Counted from the stretch's first letter, positions 55,581 through 64,000 are shown. The stretch: DNA of 64,000 nt from Ruminococcus sp. (GCA_016288815.1 JAEELF010000041.1:2421-66420); one strand, 5' to 3'. Numbers and translations are program-made. Notes: generated by a model from the sequence alone, not told the origin.

Positions 55581-56990
55581 TCAGCCATTCACGAGCAGCT
55601 GTCTCATCAGACAGAGATCAGTGACATCGAGAACTCCGTCCCCGCTCAGGTCAGCTGCCTCCCAGTCCGCGAGCTCCGTCTCCGGAACAGCGAGCAGCCA
55701 TTTCTGCAAGGTCACGACGTCCGACACATTGAACTCACCGTCACCGTTGACGTCGCCAACTGCGGGAGCGCTGTGCTTTCCGGAGCTGTCGCAGATCTGG
55801 TTGAAGAGCACCTTCAGCTCCTGATCGTTGAGCCTGCAGGCAGAGCGGTCGTAGTGTCCCTTGATGACCGTCCCGTCGTCCTGCTTGGAATCCGGAGTGG
55901 ACCACAGCACCGGACAGAGCTGACGCTCATACGCCGCCTTGCAGACCGAGCTGAGGAACAGCCTTACCGAAGCCGGATCCTTGCCCTTAGTCGGGCAACC
56001 GTACTCACCCACGATGACCGGTATGCCCTTGTCGATGAAATTTGTCTTCATCATGTCCATCTGCTCATAGAGCTCGCGGAAGTCCGCGTCAGTGCCCCAT
56101 GTGGAGCGCGCCTTCGCCCATGTCTCGTCCTTGTCCTCAAGGATAGCGAAGCCAGCGGGAGTGTAGTAATGAACGGACACCGCCATGCGGCCTGCTGGGT
56201 CGTTCGGCATCTTGAAGAGAGGGTCGCAGGTGCGGTCAAAGCCTGTGTTATAGCCGGATATGAGCAGATGACGCTCAGCGTTGTTTCCGCCGGAGCTTCT
56301 GACGACGTCCACGAACTTCTGGTTGATCTCGTTCACGAGAGCATAGGACTCAGCCTTGCCGTCGGTACCGCCCCACGGATTCCAGATACTCTCCCAGCCG
56401 AGCTCCTCGTTCTGCGACTCGAACATGAGGTAATCGCCGTAATCCTTGAAGCTGTCGGCGATCTGCTCCCACATATGCGCGTAGCGCTTCATGCTCTCGT
56501 CCTTATCCTCGGGGAACTTATTTACCCAGCCGCCGTCCCAGTGGATATTTATGATACAGTACATACCGCTCTCGAGCGTCCAGTCAACGACCTCGTGGAC
56601 GCGCGCGTCGTACTCAGGATTAATAGTGTAGGTGCCGTCGTGCTCCATCATATTCGACCACGCGACCGGTATACGCAGCACGCCGAATCCCTCGTCAGCC
56701 ATTCCCTGTATTATTTCCTTTGTTATCACGGGACTTCCCCATGCAGTCTCGTAGTTATTGGGCTTGCCCTCGCTCCACTGCTTTATCCAGTCGTCGCCGT
56801 ACCAGTCCGGGCACGCCTCGAAGGTATTTCCGAGGTTTATGCCTATGCCCATATCGCGCACGAGCTCCATGGTCGTGATATCACGCATTGCAGTGTACTT
56901 CGCTGGCACAGCGCCCGCATCTGTTGCAGGGACGGACTGCGCGAGCACTGCCGCAGACATTACTGCTCCTATTATCTTTGATAACTTCAT
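55581..56990 (-). CDS. GH5 (subfamily 4-like) endoglucanase + dockerin
   Basis: Start ATG 56990 (AGGAGG); LGNTFE, LRIPVAW, INIHWD, FESQNEE, VHYYTP, VGEYG; dockerin. Confidence 0.93.
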   Translation of the reverse strand: MKLSKIIGAVMSAAVLAQSVPATDAGAVPAKYTAMRDITTMELVRDMGIGINLGNTFEACPDWYGDDWIKQWSEGKPNNYETAWGSPVITKEIIQGMADEGFGVLRIPVAWSNMMEHDGTYTINPEYDARVHEVVDWTLESGMYCIINIHWDGGWVNKFPEDKDESMKRYAHMWEQIADSFKDYGDYLMFESQNEELGWESIWNPWGGTDGKAESYALVNEINQKFVDVVRSSGGNNAERHLLISGYNTGFDRTCDPLFKMPNDPAGRMAVSVHYYTPAGFAILEDKDETWAKARSTWGTDADFRELYEQMDMMKTNFIDKGIPVIVGEYGCPTKGKDPASVRLFLSSVCKAAYERQLCPVLWSTPDSKQDDGTVIKGHYDRSACRLNDQELKVLFNQICDSSGKHSAPAVGDVNGDGEFNVSDVVTLQKWLLAVPETELADWEAADLSGDGVLDVTDLCLMRQLLVNG

Positions 56991-57175
56991 ATTAACCTCC
57001 TGTGGGGGATCATTTCTTCTCACTCCACATGATACATCGCCCGCACCGGAATATCAACCCATAAAAGTAATTTCTGGTGGACAAAATGGGAACCACTTTC
57101 ACTGTCATGCAGCCCGCTCCCCGCCGGAGACAGAAAAAGACCGCCGCAGGTCTCCCCGCAGCGGTCATTGAAAAA

Positions 57176-59584
57176 TCATTGCTGTTCAGTATCCAGAAGC
57201 GCCTGCCTCATCGCGATTAGGTCGAAAATATCCAGCACGCCGTCCCCGTTGAGGTCGGCGCCCTTCCAGTCCCTGAGCTCTATGCTCGCGTCTCCGAGCA
57301 GCCACTTCTGAACGCACACCGCGTCAGCGACATTCACCTTAGTGTCCGCGTTGACATCGCCCGGAATAGTCAGGAACTCGAATCCCCTGCGGCTCGAGTA
57401 AGCGTAGTAATACGCAGTGGACTCCGCATACCCGCAGACCGTCGTATCCTGAGGCATGAGAAGGAAGTTCTCGCCGTCGCCGAGTATAAGGCAGTCGGGG
57501 TTCTCAAAGGTTATCTTTTTGAGTTTATCGCAGTAGTCGAATGCCATTTCAACAGTATTGACATTTTTGGGAACAGTAACCTCAGTCAGGCTTTCGCAGA
57601 ATTCAAAAGCGCCGTTCCTTATCGCTGTAACACTCTCCGGAATATCGACCTTTTTCAAGGACGAGCAGACGTAGAACATACCTCGTGCTATCTCGGTGAC
57701 ACCGTCGGGGATAGTGAACTCAGTAAGGTTTTTGCAGCTGTAGAAGCAGTAGCCGCCGAACCGCTGAACGGAGTCGGGCACGGTGATAGAGGTCACTTCC
57801 GAGCCCTTGAAAGCCTCACCGCCTATTGCTGCCACACCGTCGGGAACGACGACATCGCCCGTACACTTTGTACCGTCCACAAGGATATCGTTTATGATGA
57901 CGAGCTCCTTCCCCTCGCTGAACGCTTCATACCACGGCGTTCCCCAAAAAGAGGTGCGGCTGATGTCCATGCCGTTCTTTTCGGGGATAGTCACCTCAGC
58001 GAGCGAGGTGCAGTTCCCGAACGCCGAGCCTCCTATCGTCTGAACAGTCTCCGGCAGGACTAATTCCTCCAGCGAAGTACAGCCGGAAAAGGATCCGTAT
58101 CCGACCTCCTTTATGCCGTCACTCAATACGGCCTTTTTCAGCCCTGTGCAGTTTGTGAAGGCGTTGCCGGCAGAGATCAGGCTGCCCGGCAGAGTGATCT
58201 CAGTGAGCGACGCGCAGTCCATGAACGCCCTGTACCCGATCTCTGTGAGCGTATCGGGGAAGGTCACATTGCCGAGCTTCCAGCAGTCATTGAAAGCGTA
58301 GGCATCGATCATTTTGAGCCCGGAGGGTATATCCACAGAAGCGAGTGACGTGCAGCGCTCAAACGTCCCCTCGCGGATCTCAGTTAGCGTATCCGGCAGG
58401 GTGACCGATGTCAGCGCCTCACAGCCCCTGAATGCGTACTCGCCGATAATTTCGACGCAGTCGGGAATGACGACAGTTTTCAGAGTTTCGCTTCCGGAGA
58501 AAGCACTATCCGCTATGCACCTGACGCCGTCGGGAACGACGAGCTCCTCGCCGGTGTAGGCAGTGGCGTCGAGGAGGCAGCCCTTGACGATGAACAGCCC
58601 GTTCTCGTCAGTGTTGTTCTCCTTGAACGGAGTGTTATTGAACATCCCGCTGCCTACGGATGTCACATTGTCCGGGAAATCCACGCTTTCCAGCGCGGAA
58701 CAGTCATAGAATGAGGATTCTATGGTGGTTATGCTGTCGGGGAGAGTAATTTTGGTCAGCGCTTTACAATGCTGGAAGCAGCCCGACGGAAGAGTTTTCA
58801 GTCCCTCAGGCAGTCTTACATCAGTGAGCGAGGTGCAGTACGAGAAGGCAATATCGCCTATCTCAGTAACGGTGTCGGGGATATAGACGCTCTCCATGGC
58901 GGTGCAGTCGGCGAAAGCGTATATACCGATAGCAGTAACGGGAATGCCTTTTATCTCGTCGGGGATAACGACATTCACTGCGCTCTTATCGCAGCCGGTA
59001 ATGATCACGCCGCTGTCCGAGATAACGCCCGAGAGCGTACCGAACGTCACAATCTTCTCGTAATCCTTGAACCGTATGCCGTCCTGAGCATTCATGCTGC
59101 AATATCTCTCGGCAGTCGAGCCTGACTTGCCGAATACGGTCAATTTCTGACCGAAGACGTAATGCACCTCCGGGATATAGATGTCAGCATTCTCGATGCG
59201 CACCCAGCGCTGCTCGTCTCCACGGTAAAGAATGAACTGCTTTGAGAGTATGCGCTCAACGCTCTCAGGGATAACTAGCCCCTCTAAAAGACTCATAGTG
59301 ACTGTGCAGTCCTCAGCGATAGTCGTGACGGGACAGCCATTCAGCTCTGACGGGATAACGAATTCCCCGGTCATAGACGAAGCTGAGATCGCGTGTACGA
59401 CCGCCTCACCGTTGCTGATAGTATATTGCAGCTGGACATCATCGGGTCTGTAGATATACATCTCAGACTGAGACGCCGCCGCAGATACCACGCCCGTCAT
59501 AACGTCCCGGCACGGCTCGCACAGAACAGACGTCAATGCGACTGACATCGCCGCAGCCGCCGCAAGAATCTTTCTGCATTTCAT
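57176..59584 (-). CDS. BspA-type LRR protein + dockerin
   Basis: Signal peptide; repeated LP.TL..I...AF..C.SL; dockerin GDVNAD...DWKGADLNGDG. Confidence 0.9.
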   Translation of the reverse strand: MKCRKILAAAAAMSVALTSVLCEPCRDVMTGVVSAAASQSEMYIYRPDDVQLQYTISNGEAVVHAISASSMTGEFVIPSELNGCPVTTIAEDCTVTMSLLEGLVIPESVERILSKQFILYRGDEQRWVRIENADIYIPEVHYVFGQKLTVFGKSGSTAERYCSMNAQDGIRFKDYEKIVTFGTLSGVISDSGVIITGCDKSAVNVVIPDEIKGIPVTAIGIYAFADCTAMESVYIPDTVTEIGDIAFSYCTSLTDVRLPEGLKTLPSGCFQHCKALTKITLPDSITTIESSFYDCSALESVDFPDNVTSVGSGMFNNTPFKENNTDENGLFIVKGCLLDATAYTGEELVVPDGVRCIADSAFSGSETLKTVVIPDCVEIIGEYAFRGCEALTSVTLPDTLTEIREGTFERCTSLASVDIPSGLKMIDAYAFNDCWKLGNVTFPDTLTEIGYRAFMDCASLTEITLPGSLISAGNAFTNCTGLKKAVLSDGIKEVGYGSFSGCTSLEELVLPETVQTIGGSAFGNCTSLAEVTIPEKNGMDISRTSFWGTPWYEAFSEGKELVIINDILVDGTKCTGDVVVPDGVAAIGGEAFKGSEVTSITVPDSVQRFGGYCFYSCKNLTEFTIPDGVTEIARGMFYVCSSLKKVDIPESVTAIRNGAFEFCESLTEVTVPKNVNTVEMAFDYCDKLKKITFENPDCLILGDGENFLLMPQDTTVCGYAESTAYYYAYSSRRGFEFLTIPGDVNADTKVNVADAVCVQKWLLGDASIELRDWKGADLNGDGVLDIFDLIAMRQALLDTEQQ

Positions 59585-59728: not shown

Positions 59729-59757
59729 AAAAAGCGACCCTTTCGGGTCGCCTTTTT
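59729..59757. terminator. terminator hairpin
   Basis: GCGACCC-TTTC-GGGTCGC flanked by A and T runs. Confidence 0.8.
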
Positions 59758-59789: not shown

Positions 59790-59905
59790 TCAGCCGTTGT
59801 CATTTATGACTATCCCGCCTGCCCTCGCGCGGCGGATATATGTGAGCTCGAACATCGACGTTGCGAGGAGTATCTTCACGCCGGGGAACTCTTTTTTCAG
59901 CTCGC
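59790..59905 (-). pseudogene. fragment of a response-regulator receiver domain
   Basis: ELKKEFPGVKILLATSMFELTYIRRARAGG resembles the alpha3-beta4-alpha4 part of a receiver domain; no N-terminal DD/phospho-Asp, no output domain. Confidence 0.5.
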
Positions 59906-60088
59906 TCCGAGGAGCACGGCGCATACCGAGATGAGTATGTGCCTCTTTTTTTGCCTTGTAAGGCCCAGCATGACCGCCTTCCTTCAATGATATATCTAAT
60001 CATAGCACTGTTCTGTGAGGACAATCAAGAAAGAAACCGCCCATTTGTGCACGTCCAACAAATACAGTGAGTAATTGTGTGCATTTTT

Positions 60089-60143
60089 CTGTACTGCAAC
60101 TGTACTTTTGTACATACCATTATTCGGATAAATGATGTATAAT
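60089..60143 (+). promoter_or_regulatory. direct-repeat site plus -10 of the DUF6935-like operon
   Basis: CTGTACT at 60089 and 60100 (11-bp period); TATAAT at 60138-60143; no recognisable -35. Confidence 0.5.
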
Positions 60144-60192: not shown

Positions 60193-60786
60193 ATGGGATT
60201 ATTTGACAAGCTAAAAAATGCGGCGAGTGCTGCAACAGGCGGTCTCAGTGGAGCAGCCGGCAGCATCGCAGGCGCCGTGCAGAAGGCAGCAAACAAGACC
60301 GTTGAGGTGCAGTTCGACAAACTGCCCGAAACTCTCGAGGAATTCAAGGCACTGCCTCAGGCACAGCTGACTTCCGCATTCGATACAGCGGCACTGACTG
60401 TCGCGGCACTGTGTGTATACCCGAAGAGCGCCGACATCTCGCTCGAGATGCTGGGCTTCCTCAAGGGACCTCAGCCGCTTTCGGGACAGGATAAGCAGTT
60501 CCTTCGCGACCGCTTCATGGACAAGGACTACGTCCCCCGCTCATACTTCACAGGTGCTACCCCCGCCAACGACTACCAGCCCGCACAGCCCTACAGGATC
60601 AGGGTCTTCGAGAATCCGTATTCTTATCAGGACAAGGGCTACGCAAAGCTGTTCATACAGTCCGGCGGAGCGGATTCGCCGAGATATGTACAGCTCAGGC
60701 AGGCGAAGGACGGCAAGTGGTACCTCTGGGAGCAGTTCCTGCTCTCCGATATAAGGCAGCCCGAGAGTGCAGACCCGTGGGCGTAA
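60193..60786 (+). CDS. conserved hypothetical protein, DUF6935-like
   Basis: Start ATG 60193 (AGGAGG); F..LP..LEE..ALP, FLKGP.PLS, YVPRSYF.GATP.NDY.P, SGGADSPR, DPWA. Confidence 0.8.
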   Translation: MGLFDKLKNAASAATGGLSGAAGSIAGAVQKAANKTVEVQFDKLPETLEEFKALPQAQLTSAFDTAALTVAALCVYPKSADISLEMLGFLKGPQPLSGQDKQFLRDRFMDKDYVPRSYFTGATPANDYQPAQPYRIRVFENPYSYQDKGYAKLFIQSGGADSPRYVQLRQAKDGKWYLWEQFLLSDIRQPESADPWA

Positions 60787-60796
60787 GGAGGTCAGC

Positions 60797-61168
60797 ATGA
60801 GTATTACAGGCCTCTGGAAGATAACAGATATGAACGCCATGGACAAGAGCTTCAAGCAGACATGGCGCACCGTAGAGGACGTACTCGCGGACGAGAGCAT
60901 CCACCCCATGCAAAAGATAATGGCACAGGGTATGTACCTTTTCCGCGAGGACGGCAAGTGCCTCCAGCTCATGCTGAAGGAGATAGTCGGCGGCGATGGC
61001 GAGAGCTACGATGACAAGTACGTCATCGGTCAGACTTCTGACTGGAAGGAGGAGGGCGGAAAGCTCTTCGTCGCGGCAGTAGAGGATGGCGAGAATGACT
61101 GGCAGGAAATAGTCCCCGACAGCGACAGTTTCATCATCTTCAATATGTTTAAAATTGCAAAAGTATAA
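60797..61168 (+). CDS. hypothetical cytoplasmic protein, paralogue A
   Basis: Start ATG 60797 (AAGGAGG); shares G.W, FK..WRT..D..AD.S, YLF.E.GK, WKEE.GKLF with the next gene. Confidence 0.85.
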   Translation: MSITGLWKITDMNAMDKSFKQTWRTVEDVLADESIHPMQKIMAQGMYLFREDGKCLQLMLKEIVGGDGESYDDKYVIGQTSDWKEEGGKLFVAAVEDGENDWQEIVPDSDSFIIFNMFKIAKV

Positions 61169-61186
61169 GATATAGGAGGAATTGGC

Positions 61187-61609
61187 ATGAACATCATCGG
61201 GAAATGGAACGTTGCGGAGGCACAGGTGCTCAACCGCTCAACGTTCAAGCTTGACTGGCGCACCGCTGCCGACATCATGGCAGACGACAGTCTTGAAGAC
61301 TACGAGAAGCAGTCTGTTTCGTACAGCTACCTCTTCACCGAGGAAGGCAAGGCCCTGACGCTCTTCCCGATACCCGACAACATCACCAAGGAGCAGATCG
61401 ACGAGGCGCTGGCTTCCGGCGAGCTCAAACTCTACGACGACAGCACTATGGTGCTCGAGGAGAAGGCGTGGAAGGAAGAGGACGGCAAGCTGTTCTATAA
61501 TTCCGGCGCAAAGGGCGAGGTGCTCGGCGAGGAGATCTCTCCGTGGGTGGAGATAAAGCAGACCGACGGCGGCATAGAGCTTATGGCGTACCGTCTCATA
61601 AAAGGATAA
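61187..61609 (+). CDS. hypothetical cytoplasmic protein, paralogue B
   Basis: AGGAGG RBS; same motif set as 60797-61168. Confidence 0.85.
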   Translation: MNIIGKWNVAEAQVLNRSTFKLDWRTAADIMADDSLEDYEKQSVSYSYLFTEEGKALTLFPIPDNITKEQIDEALASGELKLYDDSTMVLEEKAWKEEDGKLFYNSGAKGEVLGEEISPWVEIKQTDGGIELMAYRLIKG

Positions 61610-61621
61610 GGAGGAATTGAT

Positions 61622-64000
61622 ATGGATCTTAAAAAGCTGGCAGCCGGAGTACTGGCTGCCGTGACGATGTTCTCGTACAGCGCTGGCTACTTCCCGAAGG
61701 CTGTGCCGCAGATGAGCAGTATTACTGCGAGTGCGGCTAAGGAGAAGTTCTCAGCGAAATTCAGCAGCCTTGGCAATGAAGTTTCGACTGATTCAAGCAC
61801 ATTCTTTGGCTATCTGAACAAATACTTTGATTGGAGCTATGTCTCGAGCAGTTCTAACGAGTACAAGTATCGTATCACCGGCTTCAAGAGCGGGTATACA
61901 TCATATACCGTCCCTGCTCCTTACATGGACGGAACAACGATATACAGAGTATCATACATCGGAAATGACGCTAAAATGAGCGGTTCTTCTAATGTTCAGA
62001 AACTTACTGTTTCTGATTCGGTAGAGTATATCGGCGGATATGCTTTTTCCGGCTGTACCGGATTACAGTCCGTAACTTTCAGAACAGAAGCACTTTCAAA
62101 CTCAAATTTAAACACCACAGCAACGCATATGGCGCTCACTGAGATAAAGGACGGCGCTTTCAACGGCTGTACGAACCTTTCAACGTTCAATATAAGCCCA
62201 GTATCGAAATTTGATGTGTTTACGTCAATCGGAAACAGTGCATTTAATGGCTGTTCATCTCTGACGGAGATAAACATTCCTGCTTCCACTGAGAACATTG
62301 GTTCAAATGCGTTCAACGGCTGTACTTCTCTTACAACTCTGAATATGCCGGATGACATCAATACTTCTGCACTCACCACTGTCGGCGATGTCGCCTTCAA
62401 GGACACAGCCCTCACAACGGGCTATGTCACCAAGAATATGACTGAGAACCCCTATGAGTACATTCCCACGCTGACCGAATACGTCGTTGCGGACGATCAG
62501 GTAAAGGGCTACTACGCCATAGACGGCGTGCTCTGCCGCGATTACACCCTTGACGAGACTGCACACAAGGCTCTCGCGGCGTATCCGCCCGCAAAGGAGG
62601 GCGACAGCTATACTATCCCCGCGGAGATAGATACTATCGGTCATTATGCGTTCAATGATCTGAACAACGACGCCCTCAGCGTTACTATCCCCTCAACTGT
62701 TACCACAGTCTCATCTTATGCATTCAACAACGGCAAGCTGAAGAATATCACTGTCAACGGCGCGCCCACTTTGTATAACACATTCATGCACAATGTAAAC
62801 CTCACAGGCACGCTGACTATCAACGGCGAGGCAAGGTGGGACAAGGAAGCGACGTCTGCATACTGGTTCCAGAACTGTGACATCCAAAAGGTAGTGTTCA
62901 CACCGAACTTCACATGGCGCCTGCCTGACGAGCCTATCTCTATGAACTTCCAGCTCTTCGGCTTATCTACGGATGATAGCTACGGCTATTACAGCTATAA
63001 ATCAAACGACTACGCTTATATGAAGGAGCAATACTACAATTCCGTTGATACCGTGGAGATACAGGGCAAATGGAATCTCAGATACGGCAACGGCGAATAC
63101 TTTGAATTCGGCGAGCATAGATTCCAGGGCGTAAAGCACGTCAAGTTCACTGACCCCGACTGCGAGATAACGAAGTATATGTTCTGTTTGTCTCCCGAGC
63201 TTGAAACGGTACAGCTCCCTGCAAACCTCAAGGAGATACCTGCGGGCGCTTTCAGCTACACATACGATCTCCAGTCGCTGGACATTCCCGATACTGTCGA
63301 GACTATCGGCTACTGCGCGTTCCAGAACAGCGGTCTAAAATCGCTCATTGTTCCGGACGGAGTTACATTCATTGGCGAAAACGCATTCGAGATGTGGGGC
63401 ACAAAGCTCCTGCGCGATGACGAGTTCGTGACACAGTTCACAGACCTGTATCTCCCGCCCTCGCTCACCTATGACTCTATGTCAGCCATGAACTTCGGCA
63501 ACAGCGACAATACAGGCGTTACGCTGGACGAGAGCGAGAAGCCTTATGCCGTAACTCTCCATGGTGTTGCGGGCTCGGGCGCGGAAACATACGCGAACAA
63601 GTACGACAACGTGACCTTCGACGGTTCAATGGACGACCTCAGCGCATACACCGTTACGAAGATAGACGGCGAAACACCTGTAACACAGGTGCGCGACGGC
63701 GTTACATACTACATCACTAATTCCGAATACCCCACATTCGAGATAAAGAACGGTTCTAAGACATACACTCAGGCTGACACTGATGTGCTCTATATCTACA
63801 AGACCAAGCCCACATCAAGAAGCTCAGGCGACTATTACGTTACCGGCAACTATCTCATCAAGCCCAAGGATCCGACAGCAATGTTCGGCACTCTCGCCTT
63901 CAACTATGCATGGGAGAGCGGCTGTCCGTCGTTCCATACATACAATGAAGAGCACATACAGACCCTCGAACCCACCTGCACAGAGGACGGCTACTCTTAC
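61622..64000 (+). CDS. large secreted BspA-type LRR protein, truncated by window end (absent from ORF track)
   Basis: AAGGAGG RBS, ATG 61622, MDLKKLAAGVLAAVTMFS signal peptide, IG..AF.GC..L repeats; frame reads open where translated. Confidence 0.85.
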   Translation, partial: MDLKKLAAGVLAAVTMFSYSAGYFPKAVPQMSSITASAAKEKFSAKFSSLGNEVSTDSSTFFGYLNKYFDWSYVSSSSNEYKYRITGFKSGYTSYTVPAPYMDGTTIYRVSYIGNDAKMSGSSNVQKLTVSDSVEYIGGYAFSGCTGLQSVTFRTEALSNSNLNTTATHMALTEIKDGAFNGCTNLSTFNISPVSKFDVFTSIGNSAFNGCSSLTEINIPASTENIGSNAFNGCTSLTTLNMPDDINTSALTTVGDVAFKDTALTTGYVTKNMTENPYEYIPTLTEYVVADDQVKGYYAIDGVLCRDYTLDETAHKALAAYPPAKEGDSYTIPAEIDTIGHYAFNDLNNDALSVTIPSTVTTVSSYAFNNGKLKNITVNGAPTLYNTFMHNVNLTGTLTINGEARWDKEATSAYWFQNCDIQKVVFTPNFTWRLPDEPISMNFQLFGLSTDDSYGYYSYKSNDYAYMKEQYYNSVDTVEIQGKWNLRYGNGEYFEFGEHRFQGVKHVKFTDPDCEITKYMFCLSPELETVQLPANLKEIPAGAFSYTYDLQSLDIPDTVETIGYCAFQNSGLKSLIVPDGVTFIGENAFEMWGTKLLRDDEFVTQFTDLYLPPSLTYDSMSAMNFGNSDNTGVTLDESEKPYAVTLHGVAGSGAETYANKYDNVTFDGSMDDLSAYTVTKIDGETPVTQVRDGVTYYITNSEYPTFEIKNGSKTYTQADTDVLYIYKTKPTSRSSGDYYVTGNYLIKPKDPTAMFGTLAFNYAWESGCPSFHTYNEEHIQTLEPTCTEDGYSY

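Follow-up and report, generated by a model that had tools for sequence, protein, structure and literature searches.

A DUF6935 protein and a family of small partner proteins encoded upstream of a giant leucine-rich-repeat surface protein in Ruminococcus

What do two small, diverged sibling genes do directly upstream of a gene for a giant secreted protein? The question is raised by positions 60193-64000 of a 64,000-nucleotide (nt) stretch of DNA from Ruminococcus sp. (GCA_016288815.1, JAEELF010000041.1:2421-66420), the whole of which is referred to here as the window. In this region, a gene for a protein with the DUF6935 domain (g1), two small paralogues (g2 and g3) and the 5′ part of a gene for a giant leucine-rich-repeat (LRR) surface protein (g4) follow one another. 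An earlier note on this DNA had compared the arrangement with the immunity or chaperone arrays of polymorphic toxin and adhesin systems. Our analysis showed that the small genes track the DUF6935 gene, not the giant gene, and we tentatively propose that the DUF6935 protein and its small partner serve in maintenance of the cell envelope. The four genes are as follows.

60193-60786, + strand: g1, DUF6935 protein, 197 residues, ATG start with AGGAGG 7 nt upstream
60797-61168, + strand: g2, small partner protein, type A, 123 residues
61187-61609, + strand: g3, small partner protein, type B, 140 residues
61622 to past 64000, + strand: g4, giant surface protein, 5′ part

All four genes are co-oriented, the intergenic gaps are 10, 18 and 12 nt, and an AGGAGG ribosome-binding site lies ahead of every start. 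The start chosen for g1 is shared by its homologues, which likewise open with MGLFD. A consensus scan detected no terminator-like site on the + strand within 60193-64000; the closest ones upstream of the block are at 59734 and 59918. The open reading frame list, the sequence and the terminator scan thus agree with what had been noted about orientation, spacing, ribosome-binding sites and the lack of a terminator. Judged by the spacing, the lack of terminators and the conserved synteny described below, g1-g4 are probably co-transcribed. A scan of the + strand upstream of g1 found no sigma-70 promoter. A TATAAT at 60138-60143 was spotted by eye, with no good -35 element, and we do not claim a promoter at this site.

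The g1 product is a DUF6935 protein of full length: it aligns with positions 2-158 of the 158 in the Pfam profile (PF22043) at E = 1e-60, scoring 204.8 bits where the cut-off is 27. It comprises an N-terminal MGLFD, a variable linker of Gly, Ala and Ser, and an α+β domain of about 150 residues with a C-terminal PWA. An alignment of 37 DUF6935 sequences contained 42 invariant columns and a fixed C-terminus (...NPWA), and the residues D106, R107, D161, R164, R169 and D173 stood out as highly conserved polar positions. MGLFD is nearly invariant, though the Gly/Ala/Ser-rich linker next to it is hypervariable. In the AlphaFold2 (AF2) model, the domain was predicted with a pLDDT above 90 and the linker with a pLDDT below 50. 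To judge by alignment and model, a conserved MGLFD on a flexible linker is the pattern expected of a short tethered targeting or docking peptide. No signal peptide was found on g1, g2 or g3. The DUF6935 family is large, with at least 2530 clusters at 90% identity from gut and rumen Firmicutes. Of 401 genomes of the order Oscillospirales, 82 have it, as do 12 of 61 close relatives; a search of 14 well-known control genomes found none. A full-text search of the literature returned no mention of DUF6935.

Over 119 residues, the g2 and g3 products are 35% identical (E = 3e-20). The genome contains no further copy, and neither protein has a hydrophobic N-terminus, which confirms the earlier view that the two are paralogues that lack a signal peptide. 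Neither matched a family in Pfam or NCBIfam, and comparing g1 with NCBIfam gave no meaningful match either. A word-index search returned 45 clusters, mostly from rumen samples and metagenome-assembled genomes of Ruminococcus, and an exhaustive profile search extended the family to 361 representatives at 50% identity; on the strength of these searches, we take the small proteins to be a real, moderately sized and unnamed family. Residues G5, W7, W95, K96 and W120 are invariant, G5 and W7 being so in 43 sequences. The g2 product (type A) is without a segment of about 11 residues that bears a PIP...EEID motif. Its type A orthologues, of 123-125 residues, were found at loci L024, L034-36, L039 and L001. 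As orthologues of type A and of type B are present in several related genomes, the duplication is old.

The small domain also occurs in longer proteins. It is fused to a second GxW domain or to DUF5640 in P0243, P0271, P0288 and P0308 (about 300-310 residues) and in P0214 and P0270; in P0166, a type A and a type B copy are joined head to tail; and in P0192, the domain stands behind an N-terminal transmembrane helix. No Rosetta-stone fusion of DUF6935 with the small domain was seen. At L004 (7644-8860), a gene for a 110-residue Septknot protein (PF19647), a family for which the literature search was likewise empty, is followed by a small-family gene and then a NUDIX gene, with no DUF6935 gene; this contig is probably from Bacteroidota, as indicated by a neighbour with a Por_Secre_tail domain.

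Which of its neighbours does the small family belong with? Both families were searched for in the same 401 genomes. Of the 41 genomes that have the small family, 38 also carry DUF6935. The 46 small-family genes include 30 that are separated from a DUF6935 gene by no more than 422 nt; these share its strand without exception, 18 standing downstream of it and 12 upstream. The non-adjacent genes are mostly in open frames of about 300 residues, which is the size of the two-domain fusions. These adjacency and co-occurrence counts led us to conclude that DUF6935 is the constant partner of the small proteins.

The block of four genes (DUF6935, 123-residue and 140/143-residue paralogues, and giant LRR protein) recurs in three other places in related Ruminococcus, where the gaps stay at 3-18 nt and the upstream flanks differ.

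L034-36: upstream genes are a sigma-70-like gene and a gene for a 540-residue protein
L024/L037: upstream genes are a divergent seven-transmembrane (7TM) kinase and a LuxR regulator
L023: only distant similarity in the large protein

At L001 and L039, the DUF6935 gene and two partners are followed by genes for a small membrane protein (PF06695, Sm_multidrug_ex) and a GGDEF protein, with no LRR gene. At L006 and L003, one partner follows DUF6935, again with no LRR gene, and L006 is without any large secreted gene. By comparison of these loci, the giant protein is a lineage-specific addition to the DUF6935-partner unit. The small genes are under purifying selection. Measured against orthologues, the ratio of nonsynonymous to synonymous substitution rates (dN/dS) was 0.11-0.15 for g1 and 0.15-0.23 for g2 and g3, against 0.32-0.34 for the LRR protein; the small proteins were 72-82% identical to their orthologues and the LRR protein 58-61%.

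The giant protein itself is longer than the window shows: g4 encodes more than 2167 residues and is open to the end of its contig, C54, of which the window makes up positions 2421-66420. Its N-terminus, MDLKKLAAGVLAAVTMFSYSAG..., is a signal peptide. BspA-type LRR_5 repeats (E = 4e-57 in one scan and, in five stretches, 3e-55 in another), DUF285 repeats (E = 1.5e-33) and further beta-rich regions follow in that order, and then several hundred residues of serine/threonine (S/T)-rich repeats, inside which the assembly breaks. The earlier note had proposed recovering the C-terminus. No other contig in the assembly overlaps the terminal repeat of g4. Positions 1-700 of contig C20 open inside an S/T-rich repeat and continue into a dockerin with a stop codon after it, which makes C20 a candidate for the missing end by an unproven join, although its repeat unit is not that of the final repeats on C54. 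The type of ending is seen in a complete orthologue on a metagenome contig (L036), which has 1749 residues, is 55% identical to g4 over the first ~1090 residues, and contains LRR_5 and DUF285 and then an S/T linker and a dockerin at the C-terminus, with no toxin domain.

These results bear directly on the proposal that g2 and g3 encode immunity proteins for the giant LRR protein, or chaperones dedicated to it, in the manner of polymorphic toxin or adhesin systems. The resemblance is plain: tandem, diverged, small cytoplasmic paralogues adjoin a very large secreted protein that evolves faster than its neighbours, and the block is conserved across four related loci. In polymorphic toxin arrays, however, the toxin gene is directly followed by its immunity genes, which vary along with it. 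Here, g2 and g3 lie upstream of the large gene, are conserved under purifying selection, and follow DUF6935 rather than the large gene; the trio exists without the LRR gene (L001 and L039), the complete orthologue ends in a dockerin where a C-terminal toxin domain would be expected, and a PADLOC scan of g1-g3 returned no match. We therefore regard an immunity or chaperone array as very improbable.

The orthologues also bear on the AT-rich 5′ part of the LRR gene, which falls in the first LRR block. The earlier observation is borne out, as the guanine-plus-cytosine (GC) content is 0.42-0.45 at 61850-62450 compared with 0.54 in the genome. The L036 and L024 orthologues of g4 show a dip (0.41) at the same place, however, so the AT-rich block is inherited, and the idea that it is a variable, strain-specific segment swapped into the gene is ruled out.

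The PADLOC result also speaks against a toxin-antitoxin or phage-defence pair formed by DUF6935 and its partner. Two genes for small proteins, found in both orders and with a patchy distribution (82/401 genomes), are what such a pair might look like. The sequences are nonetheless strongly conserved and the genes set in housekeeping-like envelope operons, and no mobile-element context was seen at the loci, which leaves this explanation hardly any likelihood.

Could the fold of the small proteins reveal what the pair does? The AF2 model of g3 is mostly beta with three helices (pLDDT 93). A Foldseek search, as proposed in the earlier note, returned only weak matches, the best being the Bacteroides lipocalin-like protein 4gzv and NanoLuc (probability 0.87-0.90, E = 0.015-0.03, TM score about 0.3). 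g2 and g3 resemble bacterial lipocalin-like or calycin proteins (4gzv, DUF5640) in size, in the N-terminal GxW and in the mainly beta fold, and in six loci a DUF5640 gene of about 90 residues occupies the position of the small partner after DUF6935. They differ from lipocalin-like proteins in the helical segment with the PIP...EEID motif, which is specific to the small family. A profile search of PDB sequences with the small family found nothing. An hhalign comparison of the small family with DUF5640-like proteins and with the GxW domains of the ~300-residue fusions gave a probability of 2-6%, and we do not claim homology to either. On the model and these matches, 'lipocalin-like' is a lead, not a classification.

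This lead opens the possibility that the pair is a small-molecule module in which the partner binds a hydrophobic ligand and DUF6935 binds or modifies it, the proximity of the LRR gene being accidental. The GxW start and the Foldseek matches fit such a role, as do the very high conservation of the polar residues of DUF6935 and the variable flanks of the pair. The low TM score and the lack of hhalign support for DUF5640/GxW homology weaken it; moreover, the four-gene block persists despite differing upstream genes, and the enrichments in the neighbourhood described below are significant. We consider a small-molecule module unlikely, while giving it serious weight.

To place DUF6935 in its wider setting, 60 further DUF6935 genes were fetched with flanks of about 7 kb on either side; with the earlier loci included, 55 loci were analyzed. 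Open reading frames were called with a simple greedy caller, the neighbours were clustered, and the cluster representatives were checked against Pfam. The recurrent neighbours were as follows.

Band_7_1 SPFH protein, about 445 residues: 16 loci of 55
Zinc-ribbon protein, about 364 residues: 14 loci of 55
TPM-domain protein: 12 loci of 55
Small family: 15 loci of 55
DUF5640 gene, about 90 residues, directly downstream: 6 loci of 55
SLH surface protein, about 1000 residues: 10 loci of 55
Other SLH proteins: 7 loci of 55
LuxR regulators with 7TM kinases: 9 loci of 55

At least one gene of the SPFH/zinc-ribbon/TPM trio lies within four genes of DUF6935 at 22 of the 55 loci (40%). The trio corresponds to YdjI/YdjG/YdjH (SamI/G/H) of Bacillus subtilis, and its presence is the strongest functional clue that we obtained. 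In B. subtilis, YdjI, aided by the membrane proteins YdjG and YdjH, brings PspA to the membrane (PMC8581546). SamGHI has an effect on secretion and on development (PMC13713150), and a table of protein-overproduction conditions includes one in which the ydjGHI genes, among others, were induced by about 7-fold (PMC3514339). The pspA-ydjGHI (pspA-samGHI) membrane-stress operon is thus among the known systems closest to our loci, where DUF6935 and the YdjI-like proteins also share a peptide. An N-terminal MGL[FI][DK], counted over 55 DUF6935 loci (L022-L032, L044-L103), is present in 39/55 DUF6935 proteins, 14/16 YdjI-like proteins and 4/4 DUF4428 proteins, compared with 6/833 other open reading frames, and may be a common targeting or docking signal. 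The DUF4428 proteins that share it are zinc-ribbon proteins of the same loci. The resemblance has its bounds: the three ydjGHI products matched at these loci include neither DUF6935 nor the small partner, and in the window the module is coupled to the gene of a giant surface protein and not to such a trio. The link between DUF6935 and YdjGHI is one of association, not membership.

Large surface proteins are the other recurrent company. A co-directional gene of at least 700 residues with a hydrophobic N-terminus lies within three genes of DUF6935 at 20 of the 55 loci (36%), against a background of 206/1644 genes (12.5%) in the genome studied here, which is itself rich in surface proteins, and 6/108 in the far flanks (binomial p = 5.5e-6). 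These large neighbours differ in type, including LRR-dockerin, SLH and Big_3 proteins. The link to large secreted proteins suggested by the earlier note thus survives in part. The block recurs and large neighbours are enriched, but L001, L039 and L006 lack a large secreted gene, and the gene neighbourhoods of DUF6935 and the paralogues have DUF6935 as their constant member and the large gene as an inconstant one. A variant block was seen at L066, L072, L075, L081, L084, L092 and L095, consisting of DUF6935, DUF5640 (about 90 residues), an SLH protein of about 1000 residues with a pectate-lyase-like adhesive domain, and a gene of about 165-190 residues; it parallels g1-g4 with other parts.

An enrichment of about 3-fold in large neighbours with a signal peptide, whatever their domain type, together with the tight coupling of the module to g4, could mean that DUF6935 and its partner assist the export or targeting of very large surface proteins from within the cytoplasm, as a holdase or adaptor that works on the pre-protein before Sec. 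At 35 of the 55 loci, however, there is no large secreted neighbour, the association with YdjGHI (22/55) is stronger, and some DUF6935 repeats are themselves extracellular. We think a dedicated export helper rather improbable.

Taken together, the recurrent neighbours, namely SamGHI-type genes, two-component sensors and unrelated large surface proteins, and the N-terminal peptide shared with YdjI-like proteins point to a function on the inner side of the membrane, in surveying or maintaining the envelope. In the explanation that we favour, the conserved unit would be a two-protein cytoplasmic module of DUF6935 and a small, mostly beta partner, the latter duplicated into types A and B in this lineage. 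The MGLFD peptide would anchor DUF6935 on the inside of the membrane or on a membrane platform, and DUF6935 and the partner would interact physically. Across Oscillospirales, the module sits in the neighbourhood of SPFH-TPM-zinc-ribbon (YdjG/H/I, SamGHI) surveillance genes and 7TM-kinase/LuxR sensors, and is found repeatedly beside genes of very large surface proteins. Here it stands directly upstream of a giant LRR-DUF285-(dockerin) protein of the cellulosome type and is probably transcribed with it. Its role would then most likely be that of an envelope-maintenance or quality-control accessory, made along with a protein that burdens export. As a whole, we hold this envelope-maintenance explanation at slightly less than an even chance; we are much surer of the partnership, and of rejecting the immunity reading, than of any role in stress or export.

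Several observations weigh against an envelope-maintenance role. At 10 of the 55 DUF6935 loci, none of the recurrent neighbours is present. The signal-peptide test was hydrophobicity-based and the caller of open reading frames home-made, and the enrichment p value ignores the shared ancestry of loci that are mutually related. No PspA, SPFH, TPM or zinc-ribbon gene adjoins the module in the window; the genome's own YdjI/YdjG/YdjH-like trio lies on another contig (C45:32668-35722), unlinked to the DUF6935 block, with a second YdjG-like gene at C7:11859-12845, and the stress link therefore rests on other genomes. Nor do solved structures help. A fold search of the AF2 model of DUF6935 against the PDB gave a best E of 0.4, which is not significant, and a profile search of PDB sequences with DUF6935 found nothing; as neither DUF6935 nor the small-protein fold has a relative of solved structure, no biochemical activity can be assigned. 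Finally, diverged DUF6935 domains, four or five in tandem (E of about 1e-27 to 1e-32 each), form proteins of about 1000-1270 residues at L041 (746-3796, - strand), G103:C10, G143:C172 and G416:C90, and the one examined, that of L041, carries a signal peptide. DUF6935 thus also occurs outside the cytoplasm, and the domain could be no more than a binding module.

A more specific form of the envelope-maintenance idea can be stated. DUF6935 and its partner could be an undescribed soluble arm of the SamGHI/YdjGHI network of Clostridia, in which MGLxD/K would recruit DUF6935 to the SPFH platform, and which would be wired to the production of giant proteins by operon fusion or by a 7TM-kinase/LuxR sensor, so that protection matches export load. 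This specific form is speculative, and we consider it doubtful.

Was the block studied here ever connected to such a sensor? Two features immediately upstream of g1 bear on this point.

59790-59987, - strand: decayed remnant of a LuxR-type response regulator, found by tblastn with the L024 regulator
59729-59756, strand not assigned: GC-rich hairpin with T-runs on both sides, bidirectional terminator-like (stems of 12 pairs for the - strand and 7 pairs for the + strand)

The remnant matches only residues 70-100 (65% identity, E = 3e-10) and 197-211 of the L024 regulator. The hairpin, just 3′ of the remnant, is its terminator and is intact; it also marks the upstream bound of the block. In related genomes, an intact LuxR regulator and a 7TM histidine kinase flank DUF6935 modules, and two-component-system neighbours are present at 9 of the 55 DUF6935 loci. 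The match to the L024 regulator suggests that the g1-g4 block once adjoined a sensor system of this kind.

Further upstream in the window, an LRR_5 protein of 802 residues with a Pfam-confirmed dockerin is encoded at 57176-59584 (- strand), just ahead of the block, and a GH5-like enzyme with a dockerin-like C-terminal repeat, as read by eye from the translation, at 55581-57023 (- strand). The block therefore sits among cellulosome components. SIGN-LRR-Doc proteins are known from the cellulosome of Ruminococcus flavefaciens (PMC2930009). As the L036 orthologue ends in an S/T linker and a dockerin, g4 is best read, at the level of sequence, as an unusually large member of this signal-LRR-dockerin class. 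The likeness lies in the signal peptide and BspA-type LRR of g4 and in the S/T linker and dockerin of its orthologue, and the 802-residue LRR-dockerin gene just upstream is a further point of resemblance. Compared with the R. flavefaciens proteins, g4 is far larger (>2167 residues) and has DUF285 and several hundred residues of S/T repeats in addition, and any dockerin of its own would lie beyond its contig. Upstream genes for DUF6935 or small proteins find no mention in the passages of that account that were consulted.

For the DUF6935 family, which is widespread yet absent from the literature searched, these results provide a constant partner in the form of an unnamed family with about 360 representatives at 50% identity, and a conserved putative tethering peptide that is open to test. 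They also give the family a defined neighbourhood of SamGHI-type stress genes, envelope two-component sensors and large surface proteins. If the link to stress or export is false, the locus is an ordinary operon of unknown function. If it is true, DUF6935 and its partner would be additions to a membrane-repair network known until now chiefly from work on B. subtilis, and the finding would bear on how fibre-degrading rumen bacteria handle the making of very large cellulosomal surface proteins.

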